Assembly (NCBI GenBank): GCA_041658885.1
Contig: JBAZZJ010000002.1
Location: 14,649-78,648, forward strand
Direction of reading: 5' to 3'
Source of the DNA: Minisyncoccota bacterium
GTDB taxonomy: Bacteria > Patescibacteriota > Minisyncoccia > Phycocordibacterales > 21-14-all-36-13
DNA length: 64,000 nucleotides
Position numbers and translations under genes: made by a program. Position 1 is the first letter of the stretch. Each line of letters begins with the position of its first letter. Shown one piece after another: positions 9,975 through 60,605 of the stretch. The notes beneath the pieces are model-generated. The model made no database searches, was not told the DNA's origin, and saw only the letters and a list, made by a program, of their open reading frames with translations.

Positions 9975-11119
9975 TTTTACTTAGCATAGGAACAGAAAGA
10001 AGAATTTTTGATATAGAAAGTGAAGCTCACTCACGAATTTTTTCCTACAGCAAACTTTTCGATGAAATGTATGTAATTGTTTTTAATACTAAAAAAAATT
10101 TAAATATAAATTTTAATCAAAAAAAATTTGGAGAAAAATTATTTGTTTACCCAACCAATTCAATAAATAGATGGTTTTATGTTTTGGATGCAATAAAAAT
10201 AGGGTTAAGAATAATAAAAGAAAAAAAACTAAATAAAAATAATTCTTATATAACAGCACAAGATCCATTTGAGACCGGTCTAGTCGGATGGTTTTTATCT
10301 TTTAGGTCAAAAATAAAATTGAATATTCAGATTCATACTGACATTTTCAGTTCATATTTTAAAAAGGGACACATTTTAAATTTATTAAGAATTCCAATAT
10401 CTAACTTTGTAATACCAAAAGCTGATTCTATAAGAGTTGTATCAGAAAGTATTAAAAATTTAATTATAAAAAAATTTAATGTAGATAAAAATAAAATTAC
10501 AATACTTCCAATTGTTGTTGATGAACAAAAAATTATAAACTCTGAAATAACCACTGATTTACACAAAAAATATTCTCAATTTGATTTTATATTTTTAATT
10601 ATTTCACGGCTTGAAAAAGAAAAAAATATTCCAACAATTATAGAATCTTTTAAAGAAGCGTTAAAACAGAATCCAAAAACCGGCCTTATAATAATAGGGG
10701 ATGGAAATTGTAAAAAACTATTGGAAGAGTTCGTTAAAAAACATAATTTACAAAAAAATATTATTTTTGAAGGCTGGAGCAATAATATTCACACTTATTT
10801 AAAAACTGCGGACGCATTTGTTTCATCTTCTTTTTATGAAGGGTATGGGATGGTATTTATTGAGGCGGTTTTATGCAATTGTCCAATTATTTCCTCAAAT
10901 GTTGGAATTATAAAAGAAGGGTTCAAAGATGAAGAAAATGCCATGATTTGTAATGCAGACGACAAAGAATGTTTTTCTAAAAAAATGACAAAGATTGTTA
11001 ATAATAATATTTTAAGAAATAAATTAATTAAAAATGCTACAAAAGTTTTGGAAAATAATAATATTATTCTCAACTCAGATAAATATTTGGTGAATTATAA
11101 AAAACTTTTTGAATTATGA
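9971..11119 (+). CDS. glycosyltransferase family 4
   Basis: ISRLEKEKN, EGYGMVFIEAVLCNCPIISSNVG (the E-x7-E region). ATGA overlap with the upstream gene. Confidence 0.85.
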   Translation: MILLSIGTERRIFDIESEAHSRIFSYSKLFDEMYVIVFNTKKNLNINFNQKKFGEKLFVYPTNSINRWFYVLDAIKIGLRIIKEKKLNKNNSYITAQDPFETGLVGWFLSFRSKIKLNIQIHTDIFSSYFKKGHILNLLRIPISNFVIPKADSIRVVSESIKNLIIKKFNVDKNKITILPIVVDEQKIINSEITTDLHKKYSQFDFIFLIISRLEKEKNIPTIIESFKEALKQNPKTGLIIIGDGNCKKLLEEFVKKHNLQKNIIFEGWSNNIHTYLKTADAFVSSSFYEGYGMVFIEAVLCNCPIISSNVGIIKEGFKDEENAMICNADDKECFSKKMTKIVNNNILRNKLIKNATKVLENNNIILNSDKYLVNYKKLFEL

Positions 11120-11997
11120 AAAAATTAAAAAACAAAAATAAATTAAATATAGGTTTTATAGGACAAGGATATATAGGCAAGAATTATGCTAATGACTTTG
11201 AAAACAGAGGATTTAGTGTAGTTAGATATTCTGCCGAAGAAGCACACAAACACAATAAAGAAAAAATAAAAGAATGCGACATTGTTTTTATAGCAGTCCC
11301 AGCGCCAACTACCCCAAAAGGATTTGATGACAGTATAATAAAAGAGGCCTTAAAACTCATTGGTAAAAATAAAACAGCTATTATTAAGTCAACAATTCCA
11401 GTTGGTAAAACAGAGGAACTTCAGAAAAAAAATAGGAATATTTATATTTTTCACTCACCCGAATTTTTGACAGAAGCAACTGCGTCATATGATGCGGCAC
11501 ACCCAGATAGAAATATAATAGGATTGCCTGTTTGGAATAATATCTATAAAAAAAAAGCAGATAAAATCTTAAAAACACTTCCCAAATCACCATACAACCT
11601 GATTTGCAATTCAAAAGACGCAGAACTTATAAAGTATGGAGGAAATTGTATGTCTTATACAAAAGTAATATTTGTTAATATCTTTTATGATTTAGTTTCA
11701 AACTCTGGCGCTAATTGGGACATAGTTAAAGAAGCAATAACAGCTGATCCAAGAATAGGGAAACATCACATTGAACCAATTCACAAAAGCGGAAGAGGTG
11801 CCGGCGGTCATTGTTTTATAAAAGATTTTGCCATGTTTTCAAAAATGTATGATGAATTTGTTGGAAATAAATATGGTAAAAATGTTTTAAAAAGTTTAGA
11901 GGAAAAAAACAGACATCTTCTAACCAAAACAAAAAAAGACATAGATTTACTTAAAATGGTATATGGACACGACAAAAAAAGAAAAAGTAAAAAATGA
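11116..11997 (+). CDS. UDP-glucose/GDP-mannose dehydrogenase family protein (short form lacking the C-terminal nucleotide-sugar domain)
   Basis: IGFIGQGYIGKNYA Rossmann motif, FHSPEFLTEATASYDAAHPDRNIIG and GGHCFIKD. Confidence 0.65.
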   Translation: MKKLKNKNKLNIGFIGQGYIGKNYANDFENRGFSVVRYSAEEAHKHNKEKIKECDIVFIAVPAPTTPKGFDDSIIKEALKLIGKNKTAIIKSTIPVGKTEELQKKNRNIYIFHSPEFLTEATASYDAAHPDRNIIGLPVWNNIYKKKADKILKTLPKSPYNLICNSKDAELIKYGGNCMSYTKVIFVNIFYDLVSNSGANWDIVKEAITADPRIGKHHIEPIHKSGRGAGGHCFIKDFAMFSKMYDEFVGNKYGKNVLKSLEEKNRHLLTKTKKDIDLLKMVYGHDKKRKSKK

Positions 11998-12166
11998 AAT
12001 TACGATAAAAACTTTTAATTTTTCATTTTTAAAAGGAATCGAAAGTTCAGCAATATTGTCACAAATTAAATTAATTGATGCAAAGAGATTAAGTCGTCAT
12101 GTGGGTAATATATCTGAAGATGATTTTAGTAAATTAAAACAAAAACTCAAGGAATTATTACCTTGA
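11963..12166 (+). pseudogene. 3' remnant of a PemK/MazF-like toxin gene (paralog of 58926-59312)
   Basis: SSAILSQIKLIDAKRLSRHVGNISEDDFSKLKQKLKELL aligns with AFAIISQIRLIDTKRLANKIGMLDKTQFETIKKAVKDLI of the intact gene. The N-terminal two thirds are missing and the ORF overlaps the preceding gene. Confidence 0.6.
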
Positions 12167-12176
12167 GTGTTTTTTC

Positions 12177-12215
12177 CTCTGTCTTTCGACAGAGTCGGGC
12201 CGAAGCCATTTGTAA
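12177..12215 (+). ncRNA. conserved structured element 3' of the MazF-like remnant
   Basis: CTCTGTC-tttc-GACAGAG, then GGC-CGAA-GCC, then CATTTGT. It is homologous to 59331-59370 with compensatory stem changes. Confidence 0.4.
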
Positions 12216-12242
12216 ATTCAATGTTATACTACTCTTGGTGAT

Positions 12243-13325
12243 ATGTCAATGAAATTACTAATAATAACTCAAAAAGTAGATAAAAATGACCCAATATTAG
12301 GGTTTTTTCACGGTTGGGTGGAAGAATTTTCCAAAAACGTTGAAAAGCTTACTGTGATTTGTTTAGGGGCTGGTGAACATGATTTGCCACAAAATGTCCA
12401 AGTTTTTTCTTTAGGAAAGCCAACCCAAGGTTGGCCAGCCTCGGGCCGGGAAAGATTATTTTGTAAGCTAAAAGCCTTGGCAATTTTTTATAAATACATA
12501 TTCAAATTACGAAAAGAATATGATGTAGTGTTTGTGCACATGAACAAAGAATATGTATTTCTCGGAGGATTGTTTTGGAAGTTGTGGAATAAAAAAATCG
12601 CATTATGGTACAACCACTCGTTCGGAGATTTTATGGTAAAAATTTCTGTTTTTTTATCTGATAATGTTTTTTATACATCTCCACAGGCGTTTACTTCAAA
12701 ACATAAAAAATCTAAGCAAATGTCAGCAGGAATAGATACAAATCTTTTTAAAAAAATAGAAAATATAGAAAAAAAGAAAAACTCGTTATTATTTTTAGGA
12801 AGAATTTCTCCAATAAAAAATTTAGATTTGCTTATAGATTCTGTAATTTCAATTAATAAATTTGGAAATGACTTGAAATTAGATATATTTGGCGGACCAG
12901 CAAACCCGGGTGACTATTCTTATGCAGACGAATTAAAAAAGAGAACAAAGGAACAAAATAAATTCATAATATTTAATGGGCCAGTAGCAAATTATAAAAC
13001 CCCGCAAATATTTAACGAACATGAAGTTTTTGTAAATTTAACTCCAAGTGGGAGCTTAGACAAAACAACGCTTGAAGCAATGTCATGCGAGACACTGGTT
13101 CTGACATCAAATAGATATTTTGAAGACGTGTTAGAAAATGATTTGAAAAAAATAATCTTATTTAAAGAAAAAAATCGTGATGACTTAATTATTAAAATAA
13201 AACAAATTTTTAAATTAAAAAACGATGAAAAGAAAAAAATATCAAAAGAATTAAGAAAAATTGTAATTCAAAAACATAGTTTGTTATTTTTGGTAAAAGA
13301 TGTGATTGAAACTCTATCAAAATAG
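12243..13325 (+). CDS. glycosyltransferase family 1/4
   Basis: FLGRISPIKNLDLLI and GSLDKTTLEAMSCETLVLTSN, the GT-B C-terminal domain signature. Confidence 0.8.
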   Translation: MSMKLLIITQKVDKNDPILGFFHGWVEEFSKNVEKLTVICLGAGEHDLPQNVQVFSLGKPTQGWPASGRERLFCKLKALAIFYKYIFKLRKEYDVVFVHMNKEYVFLGGLFWKLWNKKIALWYNHSFGDFMVKISVFLSDNVFYTSPQAFTSKHKKSKQMSAGIDTNLFKKIENIEKKKNSLLFLGRISPIKNLDLLIDSVISINKFGNDLKLDIFGGPANPGDYSYADELKKRTKEQNKFIIFNGPVANYKTPQIFNEHEVFVNLTPSGSLDKTTLEAMSCETLVLTSNRYFEDVLENDLKKIILFKEKNRDDLIIKIKQIFKLKNDEKKKISKELRKIVIQKHSLLFLVKDVIETLSK

Positions 13326-58142: not shown

Positions 58143-58193
58143 GTTATAATACCTACATTATAAAATAATTTATCTGCGTTTAGTCTGCGCTCG

Positions 58194-58306
58194 CCCCGTT
58201 AGAAATTTGGTAGAAAATATAAATTTAATAAATAAAGAAAGCCGTTAGGCGATTTCGTTTTCATAAACTATTGAAAGTATATAATCTTAATGAACTTCTA
58301 ACGGGG
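58194..58306. repeat. inverted-repeat element, family C copy 4
   Basis: CCCCGTTAGAAATT ... GAACTTCTAACGGGG. The interior AAAGCCGTTAGGCGATTTCGTTTTC matches copy 2. Confidence 0.7.
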
Positions 58307-58335
58307 TAAATCCGCATTCTAATCCGCGTCTTTAT

Positions 58336-58923
58336 ATGGAACAAGAAAAAACATTTGTACAAAAAAATTTGTGGCAGATTATATTAATAGTTGTTGTAGT
58401 TGCAATAATCGGTTGGGGAATTTCAAAGTACAATTCTTTTGTTGTAATGAACGAAGGAATTACTTCACAGTGGTCTCAAGTTGAAAATCAATATCAGAGA
58501 AGATTTGATTTAATCCCCAATATAGTTAATACGGTAAAAGGCGTTGCCGGACAGGAACAAAAAGTTTTTGGCGACATTGCAGAAGCACGAACAAGATATA
58601 GCGGAGCAGTATCAACAGATGAAAAAGCACAAGCCGCTAGTCAAGTTGAATCAGCTCTCGGAAGACTTTTAGTAATAGCTGAAAATTATCCTGTTCTACA
58701 ATCATCACAAGCTTATAGAGATTTAATAGTTTCTCTTGAGGGAACAGAAAACAGAATTTCAGTTGAGAGAATGAAATATAATGATATGGTCAAAGTTCTC
58801 AATGCAGGTATAAAAGTATTTCCGTCATCAATTATCGCTGGAATTTTTGGAGTAGCTGAAAGAACTTATTTTGAAGTACCAGAAGAAAATCAAGTAGTGC
58901 CAAAGGTTGATTTTACAGAGTAA
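58336..58923 (+). CDS. lemA: LemA family protein
   Basis: N-terminal TM helix, QWSQVENQYQRRFDLIPNIVNTVKG and ENYPVLQSSQAYRDL. Confidence 0.9.
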   Translation: MEQEKTFVQKNLWQIILIVVVVAIIGWGISKYNSFVVMNEGITSQWSQVENQYQRRFDLIPNIVNTVKGVAGQEQKVFGDIAEARTRYSGAVSTDEKAQAASQVESALGRLLVIAENYPVLQSSQAYRDLIVSLEGTENRISVERMKYNDMVKVLNAGIKVFPSSIIAGIFGVAERTYFEVPEENQVVPKVDFTE

Positions 58924-58925
58924 AA

Positions 58926-59312
58926 ATGCACAAAGATTTTGATAGTTGGAATAATCAGAAAAAATCTATTCATTCAGATGGTGAAAATAAGTTTTATCAT
59001 TCTCGCGAGATGTGGTGGTGTTCTCTCGGTGTTAATGTTGGATTTGAACAAGATGGAACCGGCGAAGAAAATCAACGGCCTGTTCTGATTCTTAAGGGTT
59101 TTAATAAAAATGTTTGTCTGATAGTTCCATTGACAACATCACACAAAAAGAACATTTATAATATTTCTGTTGGAGTAGTAGACAAGAAAAAAGCTTTCGC
59201 TATAATTTCACAGATTAGATTAATTGATACAAAAAGATTAGCAAATAAAATAGGAATGTTAGATAAAACTCAGTTTGAGACAATTAAAAAAGCTGTCAAG
59301 GATTTAATCTGA
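58926..59312 (+). CDS. PemK/MazF-like toxin domain protein with no adjacent protein antitoxin gene
   Basis: FDSWNNQKKSIH...REMWWCSLGVNVGFEQDG...QRPVLILKGFNKNVCLIVPLTT...ISQIRLIDTKRL. Confidence 0.65.
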   Translation: MHKDFDSWNNQKKSIHSDGENKFYHSREMWWCSLGVNVGFEQDGTGEENQRPVLILKGFNKNVCLIVPLTTSHKKNIYNISVGVVDKKKAFAIISQIRLIDTKRLANKIGMLDKTQFETIKKAVKDLI

Positions 59313-59330
59313 CAGTTTTTAATTTTTCTT

Positions 59331-59370
59331 CCCCTCAATAAAGAGGGGACAAGCCCGAAGGCATTTGTGC
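59331..59370 (+). ncRNA. conserved structured element 3' of the MazF-like gene
   Basis: CCCCTC-aataaa-GAGGGG, then GCC-CGAA-GGC, then CATTTGT. Both stems covary with 12177-12215. Confidence 0.4.
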
Positions 59371-59406
59371 AAGCATTATATCACAAATTAATTTAAAAAG
59401 TCAATA

Positions 59407-60303
59407 ATGAATATTAATTACAAAAAATTATCAATCGTGGCTTTATTCCTAACTATTTTACCACTCGTTTCTTGGGCTTTTGTTGTGCCTGAAAAACCAT
59501 CCAGTTTTGTTTCTGATTACGCTGGTATGTTGAAGCCGGACGAAAAAACAATTTTGGAAAATAAACTTTCGGAACTTGAAAAACAAACAACAAATGAAAT
59601 TGGAGTTGTAATAATAAAATCATTGGGCGGAGATACAATAGAAAATGTTGCGCAAGAAATTTTTACTCAATGGGGGATTGGAAAGAAAGAAAAAAATAAC
59701 GGAGTTCTTCTTTTGATTTCTCTTGATGACAGACAAACCCGTATACACACAGGCTATGGGGTTGAACCTTATCTTACAGATATAGGAACTTCTTATATTC
59801 AAAGTGATGTTATTACGCCGGCGTTCAAACAAGGAAATTATTTTGGTGGGATAGATGGGGCTGTTGATAAAATGATTGAAGCACTTGGTGGCCAACAAAT
59901 AATTCCTGAAGGATATTCTGAAAATTCTGACGGACCAAAACTCAATTTTAATTTTATTTTTTTTATACTGATAATTTCTCAATGGATTATAGCTGTTCTT
60001 GCTAGGTCAAAATCGTGGTGGGCAGGAGGAATTTTCGGGGGGGCTGTTGGCCTCGTAATCACATTCTTTTTTGTTGGTCTTACTTTGATTGCAATACCAA
60101 TAATTCTTTTCTTCACTGGGTTTGGATTGTTTCTGGATTTTATAGTTTCCCGCGCATACGAAAAATTTAAAAGGGGTGGAGGAACTCCTCCGTGGTTTTT
60201 AGGTGGCGGAGGATTTGGAGGAGGAAGTGGACACGGAGGCGGTGGCTTCAGTGGTTTTGGTGGAGGAATGTCTGGAGGAGGTGGGTCAAGCGGAAGGTGG
60301 TAG
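59407..60303 (+). CDS. TPM-domain (YgcG-like) membrane protein with a Gly-rich tail
   Basis: FVSDYAGMLKPDEKTILENKLSELEKQTTNEIGVVII, WGIGKKEKNNGVLLLISLDDRQTRIHTGYG, then TM helices and a GGGGFGGGSGHGGGG tail. Confidence 0.85.
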   Translation: MNINYKKLSIVALFLTILPLVSWAFVVPEKPSSFVSDYAGMLKPDEKTILENKLSELEKQTTNEIGVVIIKSLGGDTIENVAQEIFTQWGIGKKEKNNGVLLLISLDDRQTRIHTGYGVEPYLTDIGTSYIQSDVITPAFKQGNYFGGIDGAVDKMIEALGGQQIIPEGYSENSDGPKLNFNFIFFILIISQWIIAVLARSKSWWAGGIFGGAVGLVITFFFVGLTLIAIPIILFFTGFGLFLDFIVSRAYEKFKRGGGTPPWFLGGGGFGGGSGHGGGGFSGFGGGMSGGGGSSGRW

Positions 60304-60365
60304 ATTTCAATCTTAAAGCTCAAATCTCAAATCTAAAATCTGTAGAAAATTGAAATATTAAATAT

Positions 60366-60451
60366 GGAGAGGTGGCAGAGTGGTCCCCAGTATCATCAGC
60401 CTTTGACTGAGCTACCTGCCTACCGTAGGCAGGCGGAGCAGGCTAATGCAC
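60366..60451 (+). pseudogene. tRNA-Ser 5' fragment split by a 58-nt insertion
   Basis: GGAGAGGTGGCAGAGTGGT (60366-60384) and CTAATGCAC (60443-60451) are identical to nt 1-28 of the intact tRNA-Ser. The downstream sequence cannot form anticodon or T arms or a matching acceptor strand. Confidence 0.6.
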
Positions 60452-60515
60452 AAGATTGTTCCCAATTTGTTCAAGAGCGTAGCGATTGAATACAAATCGC
60501 AATCCCCCATATGGC

Positions 60516-60605
60516 GGAGAGGTGGCAGAGTGGTCTAATGCACATGCTTGGAGAGCATGAGTTCGGGAAACCGGACCGCAGGTTCAAATCCTGTCCTCTC
60601 CGCCA
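60516..60605 (+). tRNA. tRNA-Ser (anticodon GGA), class II, CCA encoded
   Basis: Acceptor GGAGAGG/CCTCTCC, 3-bp D stem, anticodon stem CATGC/GCATG with loop TTGGAGA, long variable arm GTTCGG-GAAA-CCGGAC, T loop TTCAAAT, G73, CCA. Confidence 0.85.

Follow-up and report, generated by a model that had tools for sequence, protein, structure and literature searches.

The lemA-TPM locus

The DNA analysed here, referred to as the window, comprises 64,000 nucleotides (nt) of contig JBAZZJ010000002.1 of an uncultured Minisyncoccota bacterium and contains, between two membrane-stress genes, lemA and that of its TPM-domain partner, a cassette in which a plus-strand gene for a PemK/MazF-family toxin converges with a predicted minus-strand gene for a small RNA (sRNA), the candidate antitoxin of that toxin (Table 1). 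The cassette extends from the toxin ATG to the final base ahead of the TPM ATG, and only 2 nt lie between the lemA stop codon and the toxin ATG.

The toxin open reading frame (ORF) matches the Pfam family PemK_toxin over profile positions 4-108 of 109 (E 1.3e-13, 51.5 bits, cutoff 23.1). Its NCBIfam MazF score of 25.7 bits is far below the cutoff of 120, and it is therefore not an equivalog of the Escherichia coli MazF. The top PDB profile match was the Bacillus subtilis EndoA/MazF (4mdx, E 7.6e-6), followed by other MazF proteins, and in the profile alignment R51 and T70 of the toxin fall on the catalytic R25 and T48 of 4mdx; both residues were invariant in 32 toxin homologs. Similarly, when a structural model of the toxin was submitted to Foldseek, MazF structures made up the whole of the top 46 PDB matches (probability 1.0, E values as low as 1.4e-4), with TM-scores of 0.4-0.5 that are attributed to the low confidence of the model (predicted local distance difference test score, pLDDT, 63.6). 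The initial annotation of the window, made from the letters and ORFs alone, had called this 128-aa protein PemK/MazF-like, and the Pfam, PDB profile and Foldseek matches confirm that call. Judged from sequence and model, the protein looks like an active MazF-fold endoribonuclease with its catalytic Arg and Thr intact.

In total 1550 homologs of the toxin were found; the best 120 of these are 63-88% identical and originate almost all from Parcubacteria/Paceibacterota-type metagenome bins. Three loci carrying the module (L020, L054, L009) belong to bins with the labels Chitinophagaceae, Gammaproteobacteria and Nanoarchaeota, which could reflect either bin contamination or real transfer outside the Patescibacteria. 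Toward its N-terminus the toxin is extended by 27 conserved residues (58926-59006; MxKDFDxWNxxKKxIH…FYHxRE), among which W8, K12 and Y24 are invariant and for which canonical MazF has no counterpart. In the low-confidence structure prediction this extension is partly helical, and it could serve as a docking site for an RNA partner.

Table 1. Coordinates of the features at the lemA-TPM locus and at the remnant locus within the window.
Feature	Position	Strand	Basis
lemA, upstream host gene	58336-58923	+	Pfam LemA, E 4.3e-53
Inserted toxin-sRNA cassette, 481 bp	58926-59406	both	alignment of occupied and empty sites
PemK/MazF-family toxin gene, 128 aa, intact	58926-59312	+	Pfam PF02452
Predicted sRNA gene, ~83 nt	59286-59368	-	R1 match 59281-59368, 63.1 bits, E 4e-12
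Bidirectional intrinsic terminator P3 (predicted)	59286-59321	both	inverted repeats I16 and I18, fold
P2, UCCCCUC-UUUAUU-GAGGGGA (+ strand CCCCTC-AATAAA-GAGGGG, 59331-59348)	59330-59349	-	fold, pairing
P1, GCC-UUCG-GGC, cUUCGg tetraloop hairpin (+ strand GCC-CGAA-GGC)	59353-59362	-	fold, pairing
CATTTGT (+ strand), predicted 5' end of minus-strand sRNA	59362-59368		
Predicted sRNA promoter, -35 TTGACT (59404-59399), 18-nt spacer with TG, -10 TATAAT (59380-59375)	59375-59404	-	
TPM-domain gene, downstream host gene	59407-60303	+	Pfam TPM_phosphatase, E 2e-42
Remnant toxin ORF, 67 codons	11963-12166	+	PemK profile positions 69-109, E 3.3e-6
Second predicted sRNA gene, different subtype	12137-12213	-	R1 match 12132-12213, 37.3 bits, E 5e-6
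Predicted promoter of second sRNA, -35 TTGACA (12249-12244), 17-nt spacer, -10 TAACAT (12226-12221)	12221-12249	-	10/12 matches

Read in the 5'-to-3' direction, the predicted sRNA consists of a single-stranded ACAAAU tail, the hairpins P1 and P2, and an A-rich linker that leads into the terminator hairpin and its U-run. The promoter scan gave 11/12 matches plus the TG for its promoter, the -35 box of which lies 2 nt from the TPM start codon, and from the position of this promoter the start of the sRNA is placed at A59368, the 3' end being likewise a prediction. The terminator hairpin P3 is composed of an A-run (59286-59291), the stem GCTGTCA/TGACAG (59292-59298, 59310-59315) and a T-run (59316-59320); it takes in the toxin stop codon together with the 7 codons before it and is followed by the T-run on the plus strand. 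The two hairpins and the CATTTGT described after the toxin stop codon in the initial annotation were found with the same sequences and positions. They had been placed, however, in the 3' flank of the toxin messenger RNA (mRNA), with a terminator or stability element as one option, and this reading has to be revised, since they appear instead to form the 5' part of a separate minus-strand gene with a promoter of its own, while the real terminator of the toxin gene lies upstream of them and overlaps the stop codon.

Conservation of the predicted sRNA gene in related loci

The same arrangement recurs in relatives of the toxin gene. From 80 genome loci, 82 flanks and RNAs were obtained, and in nearly all loci the 3' flank of the toxin gene begins TGA-CGGCTTTTCT...TCTCCC[stem]-loop-[stem]GGG-CGA-GCCCGAAGGC and continues ATTTGTA-N6-TATAgC-N16-18-GTCAA. 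A minus-strand promoter of the form TTGxxx, 16-18 nt, TAnnnT, 5-8 nt, AYAARUG was present in 77 of the 82 flanks, with spacers of 16, 17 and 18 nt in 48, 22 and 7 of them, respectively; the -35 box was TTGACA or TTGACT in 61 flanks, and the distance from the -10 box to the predicted sRNA start was 6 nt in 71 cases. All of the RNAs fold alike, into a 6-nt tail, a P1 of 3-4 bp with UUCG, a P2 of 5-10 bp whose loop in the relatives is mostly GCAA, GAAA or UUCG, an A-rich linker, a long hairpin and a U-run. The initial annotation had suggested collecting homologs and building a covariance model of their 3' flanks. This was done with the 80 loci, and the resulting model, R1, matched the minus strand in 79 of them with 43-101 bits, the plus strand scoring 41 bits at most, so that the claim of a structured element accompanying the toxin gene at its 3' end holds for all but one locus.

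Within the head of the sRNA, A1, A3, U6, G7, the UUCG loop and C16 are conserved at 90% or more, while P2 and the promoter spacer are variable. Positions +5 to +7 (59362-59364 in the window) read AUG in 56 and GUG in 22 of the 80 loci, that is, one or the other in 78. A peptide encoded by the sRNA was considered and rejected, as the ORFs range from 2 to more than 42 codons and their frame is not conserved, and the sRNA was consequently treated as non-coding. A scan of the window against Rfam 15 at gathering score returned two tRNAs only, and permissive scans of the two sRNA loci gave 24 bits at most, far below the cutoffs; the sRNA family is absent from Rfam.

Covariation and strand of the RNA

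When the 82 RNAs were aligned by the model, 94.9% of the cells at paired positions could pair, compared with 43-59% in slid controls, 24 of the 25 pairs had changed on both sides, and none of 500 shuffles reached the observed value. Similar results were obtained with an alignment of 18 sequences made by MAFFT only (96% paired, slid controls 40-61%, 13/25 pairs changed on both sides, 0/500 shuffles), which is not fitted to a structure and thus controls for bias from model fitting. All 15 pairs of P3 and all 5 modelled pairs of P2 have changed on both sides in the 82 sequences, with 98.7% of the cells of P2 and 99.6% of those of P1 paired. The exchange of GCC/GGC for GGC/GCC between the two copies in the window, from which covariation had been claimed on the strength of two sequences, persists in the larger set, where the middle pair of P1 is C-G in 68, G-C in 13 and U-G in 1 of the RNAs. 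On a quick toxin tree this flip requires at least 10 changes and hence does not go back to one inherited event.

Several observations place the RNA on the minus strand, namely the orientation of the promoter, the stable tetraloops (UUCG, GCAA, GAAA) that appear only in the minus-strand reading, the predominance on that strand of G·U over A·C cells (125 and 21, respectively), and the scores of R1.

In addition, the 64-kb window holds exactly two copies of the 16-mer GSCCGAAGSCATTTGT, whereas shuffles lead to an expectation of 0.03 and none of 100 shuffles contained it two or more times. Exact copies of this 16-mer in 10 IMG/VR contigs had raised carriage by phages as a candidate, which was dismissed as a chance finding, with neither a toxin by tblastn nor a promoter in these contigs. 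An inverted repeat of 8 nt that links the toxin start (58927-58934) with the sRNA start (59364-59371) was discarded as well, as it is not conserved in relatives and would be expected by chance in 600 AT-rich bases.

The remnant paralog and other decayed copies

A second copy of the module in the window has lost the N-terminal two thirds of its toxin. The remnant ORF, which shares bases with the end of the preceding gene (11116-11997), retains only the C-terminal ~43 residues of the toxin domain, and the catalytic part is gone. On the plus strand it is followed by CTCTGTC-TTTC-GACAGAG (12177-12194), GGC-CGAA-GCC (12198-12207) and CATTTGT (12207-12213), which on the minus strand correspond to an sRNA with P1 GGC-UUCG-GCC, P2 CUCUGUC-GAAA-GACAGAG and a terminator at 12145-12168; this hairpin, the equivalent of P3, was called on both strands by terminator prediction. 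That the truncated paralog keeps the architecture of the intact copy, as had been noticed at the outset, is thus borne out by the R1 match, the promoter and the terminator.

Other genomes hold comparable cases. In L067 (3613-3866) the toxin is cut after residue 62 and abuts the sRNA promoter and head, and in L071 (3578-3642, minus strand) an extra head of promoter, P1 and P2 lies ~200 nt from the main sRNA, identical to it in the head and accompanied by neither toxin nor terminator. Moreover, L047 contains a second toxin-sRNA copy (1-420, head region 118-200; the locus is cut) that reads GGC-UUCG-GCC, CGA, CUCUGUC-GCAA-GACAGAG and whose head is almost identical to that of the window remnant (12177-12213), which indicates that the subtype of the remnant sRNA is present in other genomes. 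Two head subtypes therefore occur within one genome both in the window and in L047. Taken together, the remnant, L067 and L071 suggest that decay hits the toxin and spares the RNA gene, a pattern that fits what would be expected of an antitoxin.

Host site, insertion and neighbouring genes

LemA was used as a marker to find the lemA-TPM junctions of relatives. Three of these (L093, L094 and L095, LemA 85-90% identical) have empty sites that read lemA-TAA-ATAA-ATG-TPM with nothing between, while the window, L096 and L025 are occupied at the same spot. An alignment of occupied and empty junctions showed homology through TAA-ATAA-ATG and divergence after it. Relative to the window, LemA and TPM of L096 and L025 are 84% and 82% identical, respectively, and the toxin only 63%; R1 matched L096 and gave no match where lemA and TPM meet in the empty loci. 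Since close relatives have TPM directly after lemA, the cassette is to be regarded as an insertion, which on the evidence of these junctions entered the gap of 4 nt that separates lemA from the gene of its TPM partner. The three empty-site relatives also substantiate the original description of the toxin gene as wedged between the two.

At both window copies (12243-12251 and 59399-59409) the -35 box of the sRNA, which reads TGTCAA or AGTCAA on the plus strand, touches or overlaps the start codon of the plus-strand gene that follows, the two start-codon contexts being GTCAATAATG and ATGTCAATG. The cassette thus seems to integrate exactly where genes of the same direction have their start codons; neither copy showed a clear target duplication.

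No MazE/PemI gene was found beside the toxin, and the upstream neighbour differs in nearly every related locus. A search for a protein partner in the related loci yielded no recurring small ORF, 125 of the 143 nearest flanking ORFs being singletons, and the PADLOC defence models gave no match. The absence of a protein antitoxin gene next to the toxin, first remarked for the window alone, consequently extends to its homologs, in which the proposed check for upstream antitoxins revealed no conserved partner gene.

Three further observations concern the surroundings of the cassette. In the cassette-bearing relative L096 a reverse-transcriptase gene (RVT_1, 1149-1631) lies ~440 nt upstream of lemA. 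In the window, a long imperfect inverted repeat (…CTGCGCTCGCCCCGTTAGAA…TTCTAACGGGGTAAATCCGCA…) occupies 58160-58330 between groEL and lemA, and the region 60364-60490, just upstream of a tRNA gene (60516-60602), contains a copy of the start of that tRNA (GGAGAGGTGGCAGAGTGGTC) for which Rfam makes no tRNA call.

Proposed mechanism

We propose that the minus-strand sRNA is the antitoxin of the MazF toxin, and that the system is an RNA-antitoxin pair with a MazF-fold ribonuclease as toxin and a conserved structured head in the RNA; we put the probability of this reading at about 0.7. What the analysis shows is the architecture of the two genes, its conservation, the covariation and the strand; that the sRNA is expressed, that the protein is toxic and that the RNA neutralises it are all steps that we infer from sequence. 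The near-absolute linkage of the two genes, their behaviour as a mobile cassette and the decay that spares the RNA all fit an RNA antitoxin. The suggestion of an RNA partner or antitoxin, made as one of several options in the initial annotation, thus turns out to be the best reading, although the strand was wrong and the RNA would not be a cis-acting element of the toxin 3' end.

According to this proposal the cassette would be a self-contained toxin-antitoxin unit of two genes in 481 bp, in which the sRNA would be transcribed toward the toxin gene from its own near-consensus extended -10 promoter and would end at a terminator that is the reverse complement of the toxin mRNA terminator. As a consequence of this common terminator, toxin mRNA and sRNA would be perfectly complementary over their last 35-45 nt. 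Control might then be exerted in two layers. In one, antisense pairing at the common terminator would lower the stability or the yield of the toxin mRNA; by analogy with known systems this may be the main mode, and we would stop just short of giving it even odds. In the other, the head formed by tail, P1 and P2 would be bound by a protein, the toxin itself being the most plausible candidate, and direct binding of this kind as the main mode is an analogy that we entertain more tentatively. The toxin gene of the window appears to have no promoter of its own and would be read together with lemA, apparently via translational coupling. In the related loci, a TAnnnT hexamer precedes the toxin start codon by ~6 nt in 53 of 76 cases (25 of them at exactly 6 nt), which suggests that many toxin mRNAs are leaderless. 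Such hexamers upstream of toxin starts (4-14 nt, L001-L080) often occur with a TG, and the window copy is without one.

A number of points weigh against the proposed antitoxin role or against one of its two layers. Leaderless toxin mRNAs would have no Shine-Dalgarno site that the sRNA could mask, and no cognate complementarity was detected between the sRNA and the toxin start region, where the predicted duplex energy was -16.7 for cognate and -16.4 for non-cognate combinations (p = 0.34). The antisense overlap is confined to the terminator hairpin, a structure that folds stably in each of the two RNAs, and a pure antisense RNA would not need a head so strongly conserved in sequence. As for the second layer, head binding of the type III kind is putative, and a search for tandem repeats near the toxin found none. 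No RNA-seq run was found to contain the window, and the only metatranscriptome contig on a relative (aquifer, L012) covers the 5' part of the toxin gene, with the sRNA outside it. Finally, the start and the 3' end of the sRNA are predictions from sequence, and the alignment of 82 RNAs was fitted to R1.

Alternative interpretations

The alternative closest to the proposed antitoxin role retains the convergent sRNA and makes it purely type III-like, with the head blocking the active site of a MazF-like dimer and the common terminator merely saving space. This would account for the conservation of the head beyond any antisense need while P2 and the promoter spacer vary, for the coexistence of two head subtypes in one genome (window and L047), for the missing complementarity of the sRNA 5' part to the toxin mRNA, and for the retention of promoter and head without an overlapping terminator in L067 and L071, which however are single cases. 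The B. subtilis MazF, the closest relative of the toxin with a solved structure, is reported to cut at U^ACAU, and the 5' end of the sRNA reads ACAAAU. On the other hand, known type III antitoxins are same-strand tandem repeats located ahead of the toxin gene, whose product processes them, and no repeats are found here; moreover, the A5/G5 variant of the tail represents one change on the toxin tree and has no power to reveal co-evolution. We regard a purely type III-like mode as doubtful. A broader conjecture that is likewise rather unlikely as a whole holds that a phylum-wide clade of true MazF endoribonucleases might have swapped MazE for a structured sRNA encoded in single copy, whose invariant tail ACAAAU and hairpin cUUCGg would bind the enzyme as a mimic of substrate or product, with an antisense layer at the terminator; this would constitute a hybrid type I/III class that travels as a promoter-to-promoter cassette of ~0.5 kb and inserts at host start codons.

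The sRNA might also be real without being an antitoxin, acting instead as a regulator of other targets, as a cofactor or guide of the nuclease or as a decoy, or the protein might be a non-toxic housekeeping ribonuclease. The conservation of the toxin, with 55-88% identity across many Parcubacteria lineages, is indeed unusual for a toxin, and the AUG/GUG kept at sRNA position +5 in 78 of 80 loci counts on the same side. However, the linkage of the pair in 79 of 80 loci in unrelated contexts corresponds to the behaviour of a cassette, decay is always on the toxin side while the RNA is spared, and the homologous module of plasmid pVir has a published RNA antitoxin (PMC10470494) if, as is probable, the pVir toxin is the PemK-like gene. 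These considerations make a role other than that of an antitoxin improbable. Far more remote is the original cis interpretation, in which the hairpins would lie in the 3' untranslated region of the toxin mRNA as a terminator or stabiliser. The plus strand folds as well (z = -2.8), and read-through of the terminator would place the hairpins in the toxin mRNA, but the plus-strand loops CGAA, TTGC and TTTC are not stable tetraloops, the plus strand would have 125 C·A mismatch cells against 21 on the minus strand, R1 scores far lower on it, the conserved promoter faces the opposite way, and the toxin has its own terminator upstream of the hairpins. Very little probability is likewise left for an element acting at the DNA level, in which the hairpins, as REP, attC or IS200-like ends, would signal recombination or transposition and so mobilise the toxin gene. 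Precise insertion between two genes and the many contexts would agree with it; yet no recombinase travels with the cassette, the hairpins are not at its ends, the promoter lies outside them, and the G·U asymmetry together with the stable RNA tetraloops speaks for selection on one RNA strand.

MazF proteins are the textbook case of protein-neutralised (type II) toxins, and a large clade restrained by an sRNA would, if the proposed antitoxin role is true, blur the classes I, II and III. Rfam would then gain a family that it lacks, and the hundreds of MazF genes annotated as 'orphan' in genomes of the candidate phyla radiation (CPR) would find an explanation. For CPR bacteria, whose genomes are tiny and for which no genetic system is available, a compact and testable RNA-protein pair could provide a useful handle on their RNA biology. 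The window contributes to this picture in two ways, through the exact empty and occupied sites that fix the cassette at 481 bp, and through a decayed paralog that has lost the toxin and kept the RNA gene.

Comparison with known systems

The cassette resembles the type II systems MazEF and PemIK in toxin family, fold and catalytic residues but comes without a MazE/PemI gene. With the type III systems ToxIN, CptIN and TenpIN it has in common a Kid/MazF-like endoribonuclease, a structured RNA and the lack of a protein antitoxin. In contrast to the type III antitoxins, which are same-strand upstream tandem repeats processed by the toxin, the cassette RNA is single-copy and convergent, and its toxin matches the Pfam family PemK and not the type III ToxN. 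As in type I systems, a complementary region is present (~35-45 nt); the toxin, however, is not a small hydrophobic membrane peptide but a soluble MazF-fold ribonuclease of 128 aa. Promoter, fold and terminator are conserved for the putative antitoxin RNA, which would be transcribed antisense to the toxin mRNA.

Among the type I systems of B. subtilis, txpA/RatA, bsrG/SR4 and yonT/SR6 have convergent antitoxin RNAs that overlap the 3' end of the toxin mRNA, where the duplex would trigger decay. These systems differ from the cassette in their small hydrophobic peptide toxins and in overlaps of 75-120 nt, which are longer than that of the cassette, and their RNAs have no structured 5' head conserved across a phylum. 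Another parallel in layout is par of the Enterococcus faecalis plasmid pAD1 (Fst RNAI/RNAII), in which the genes are convergent and a common bidirectional intrinsic terminator is part of the pairing surface (PMC8167048), as proposed for the cassette. The par toxin, however, is a membrane peptide of 33 residues and not a 128-aa ribonuclease, and the par RNAs pair in addition via 5' direct repeats (DRa/DRb) that mask the start site, a complementarity for which the cassette has no counterpart.

Relatives of the PemK-like toxin were found by tblastn on plasmids of Campylobacterota. The Campylobacter jejuni plasmid pVir encodes a PemK/MazF-family protein (32% identical, E 8e-8) whose gene, like that of the CPR toxin, has no protein partner annotated beside it and faces a convergent TTGATT-17-TGATATAAT promoter with several hairpins that abut its stop codon. 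From pVir of strain 81-176 the pair cjrA/cjpT has been reported (Shen et al., 2016, Mol Microbiol 101:909), which the passages on it in PMC10470494 and PMC7826846 describe as a type I system with the sRNA antitoxin CjrA; cjpT is probably the PemK-like gene. R1, run with filters off, gave no match at the pVir site, the best match on L081 lying elsewhere (15 bits), and the pVir RNA is longer than the CPR sRNA and has more hairpins. The CPR family differs further from cjrA/cjpT in being chromosomal, very large and absent from Rfam. The layout of the CPR sRNA is seen more clearly than on pVir on a Nitratiruptor plasmid, where a toxin gene with 36% identity faces a convergent TGTATAAT promoter that is followed by AUAAAU-P1-P2, ending at the toxin stop codon.

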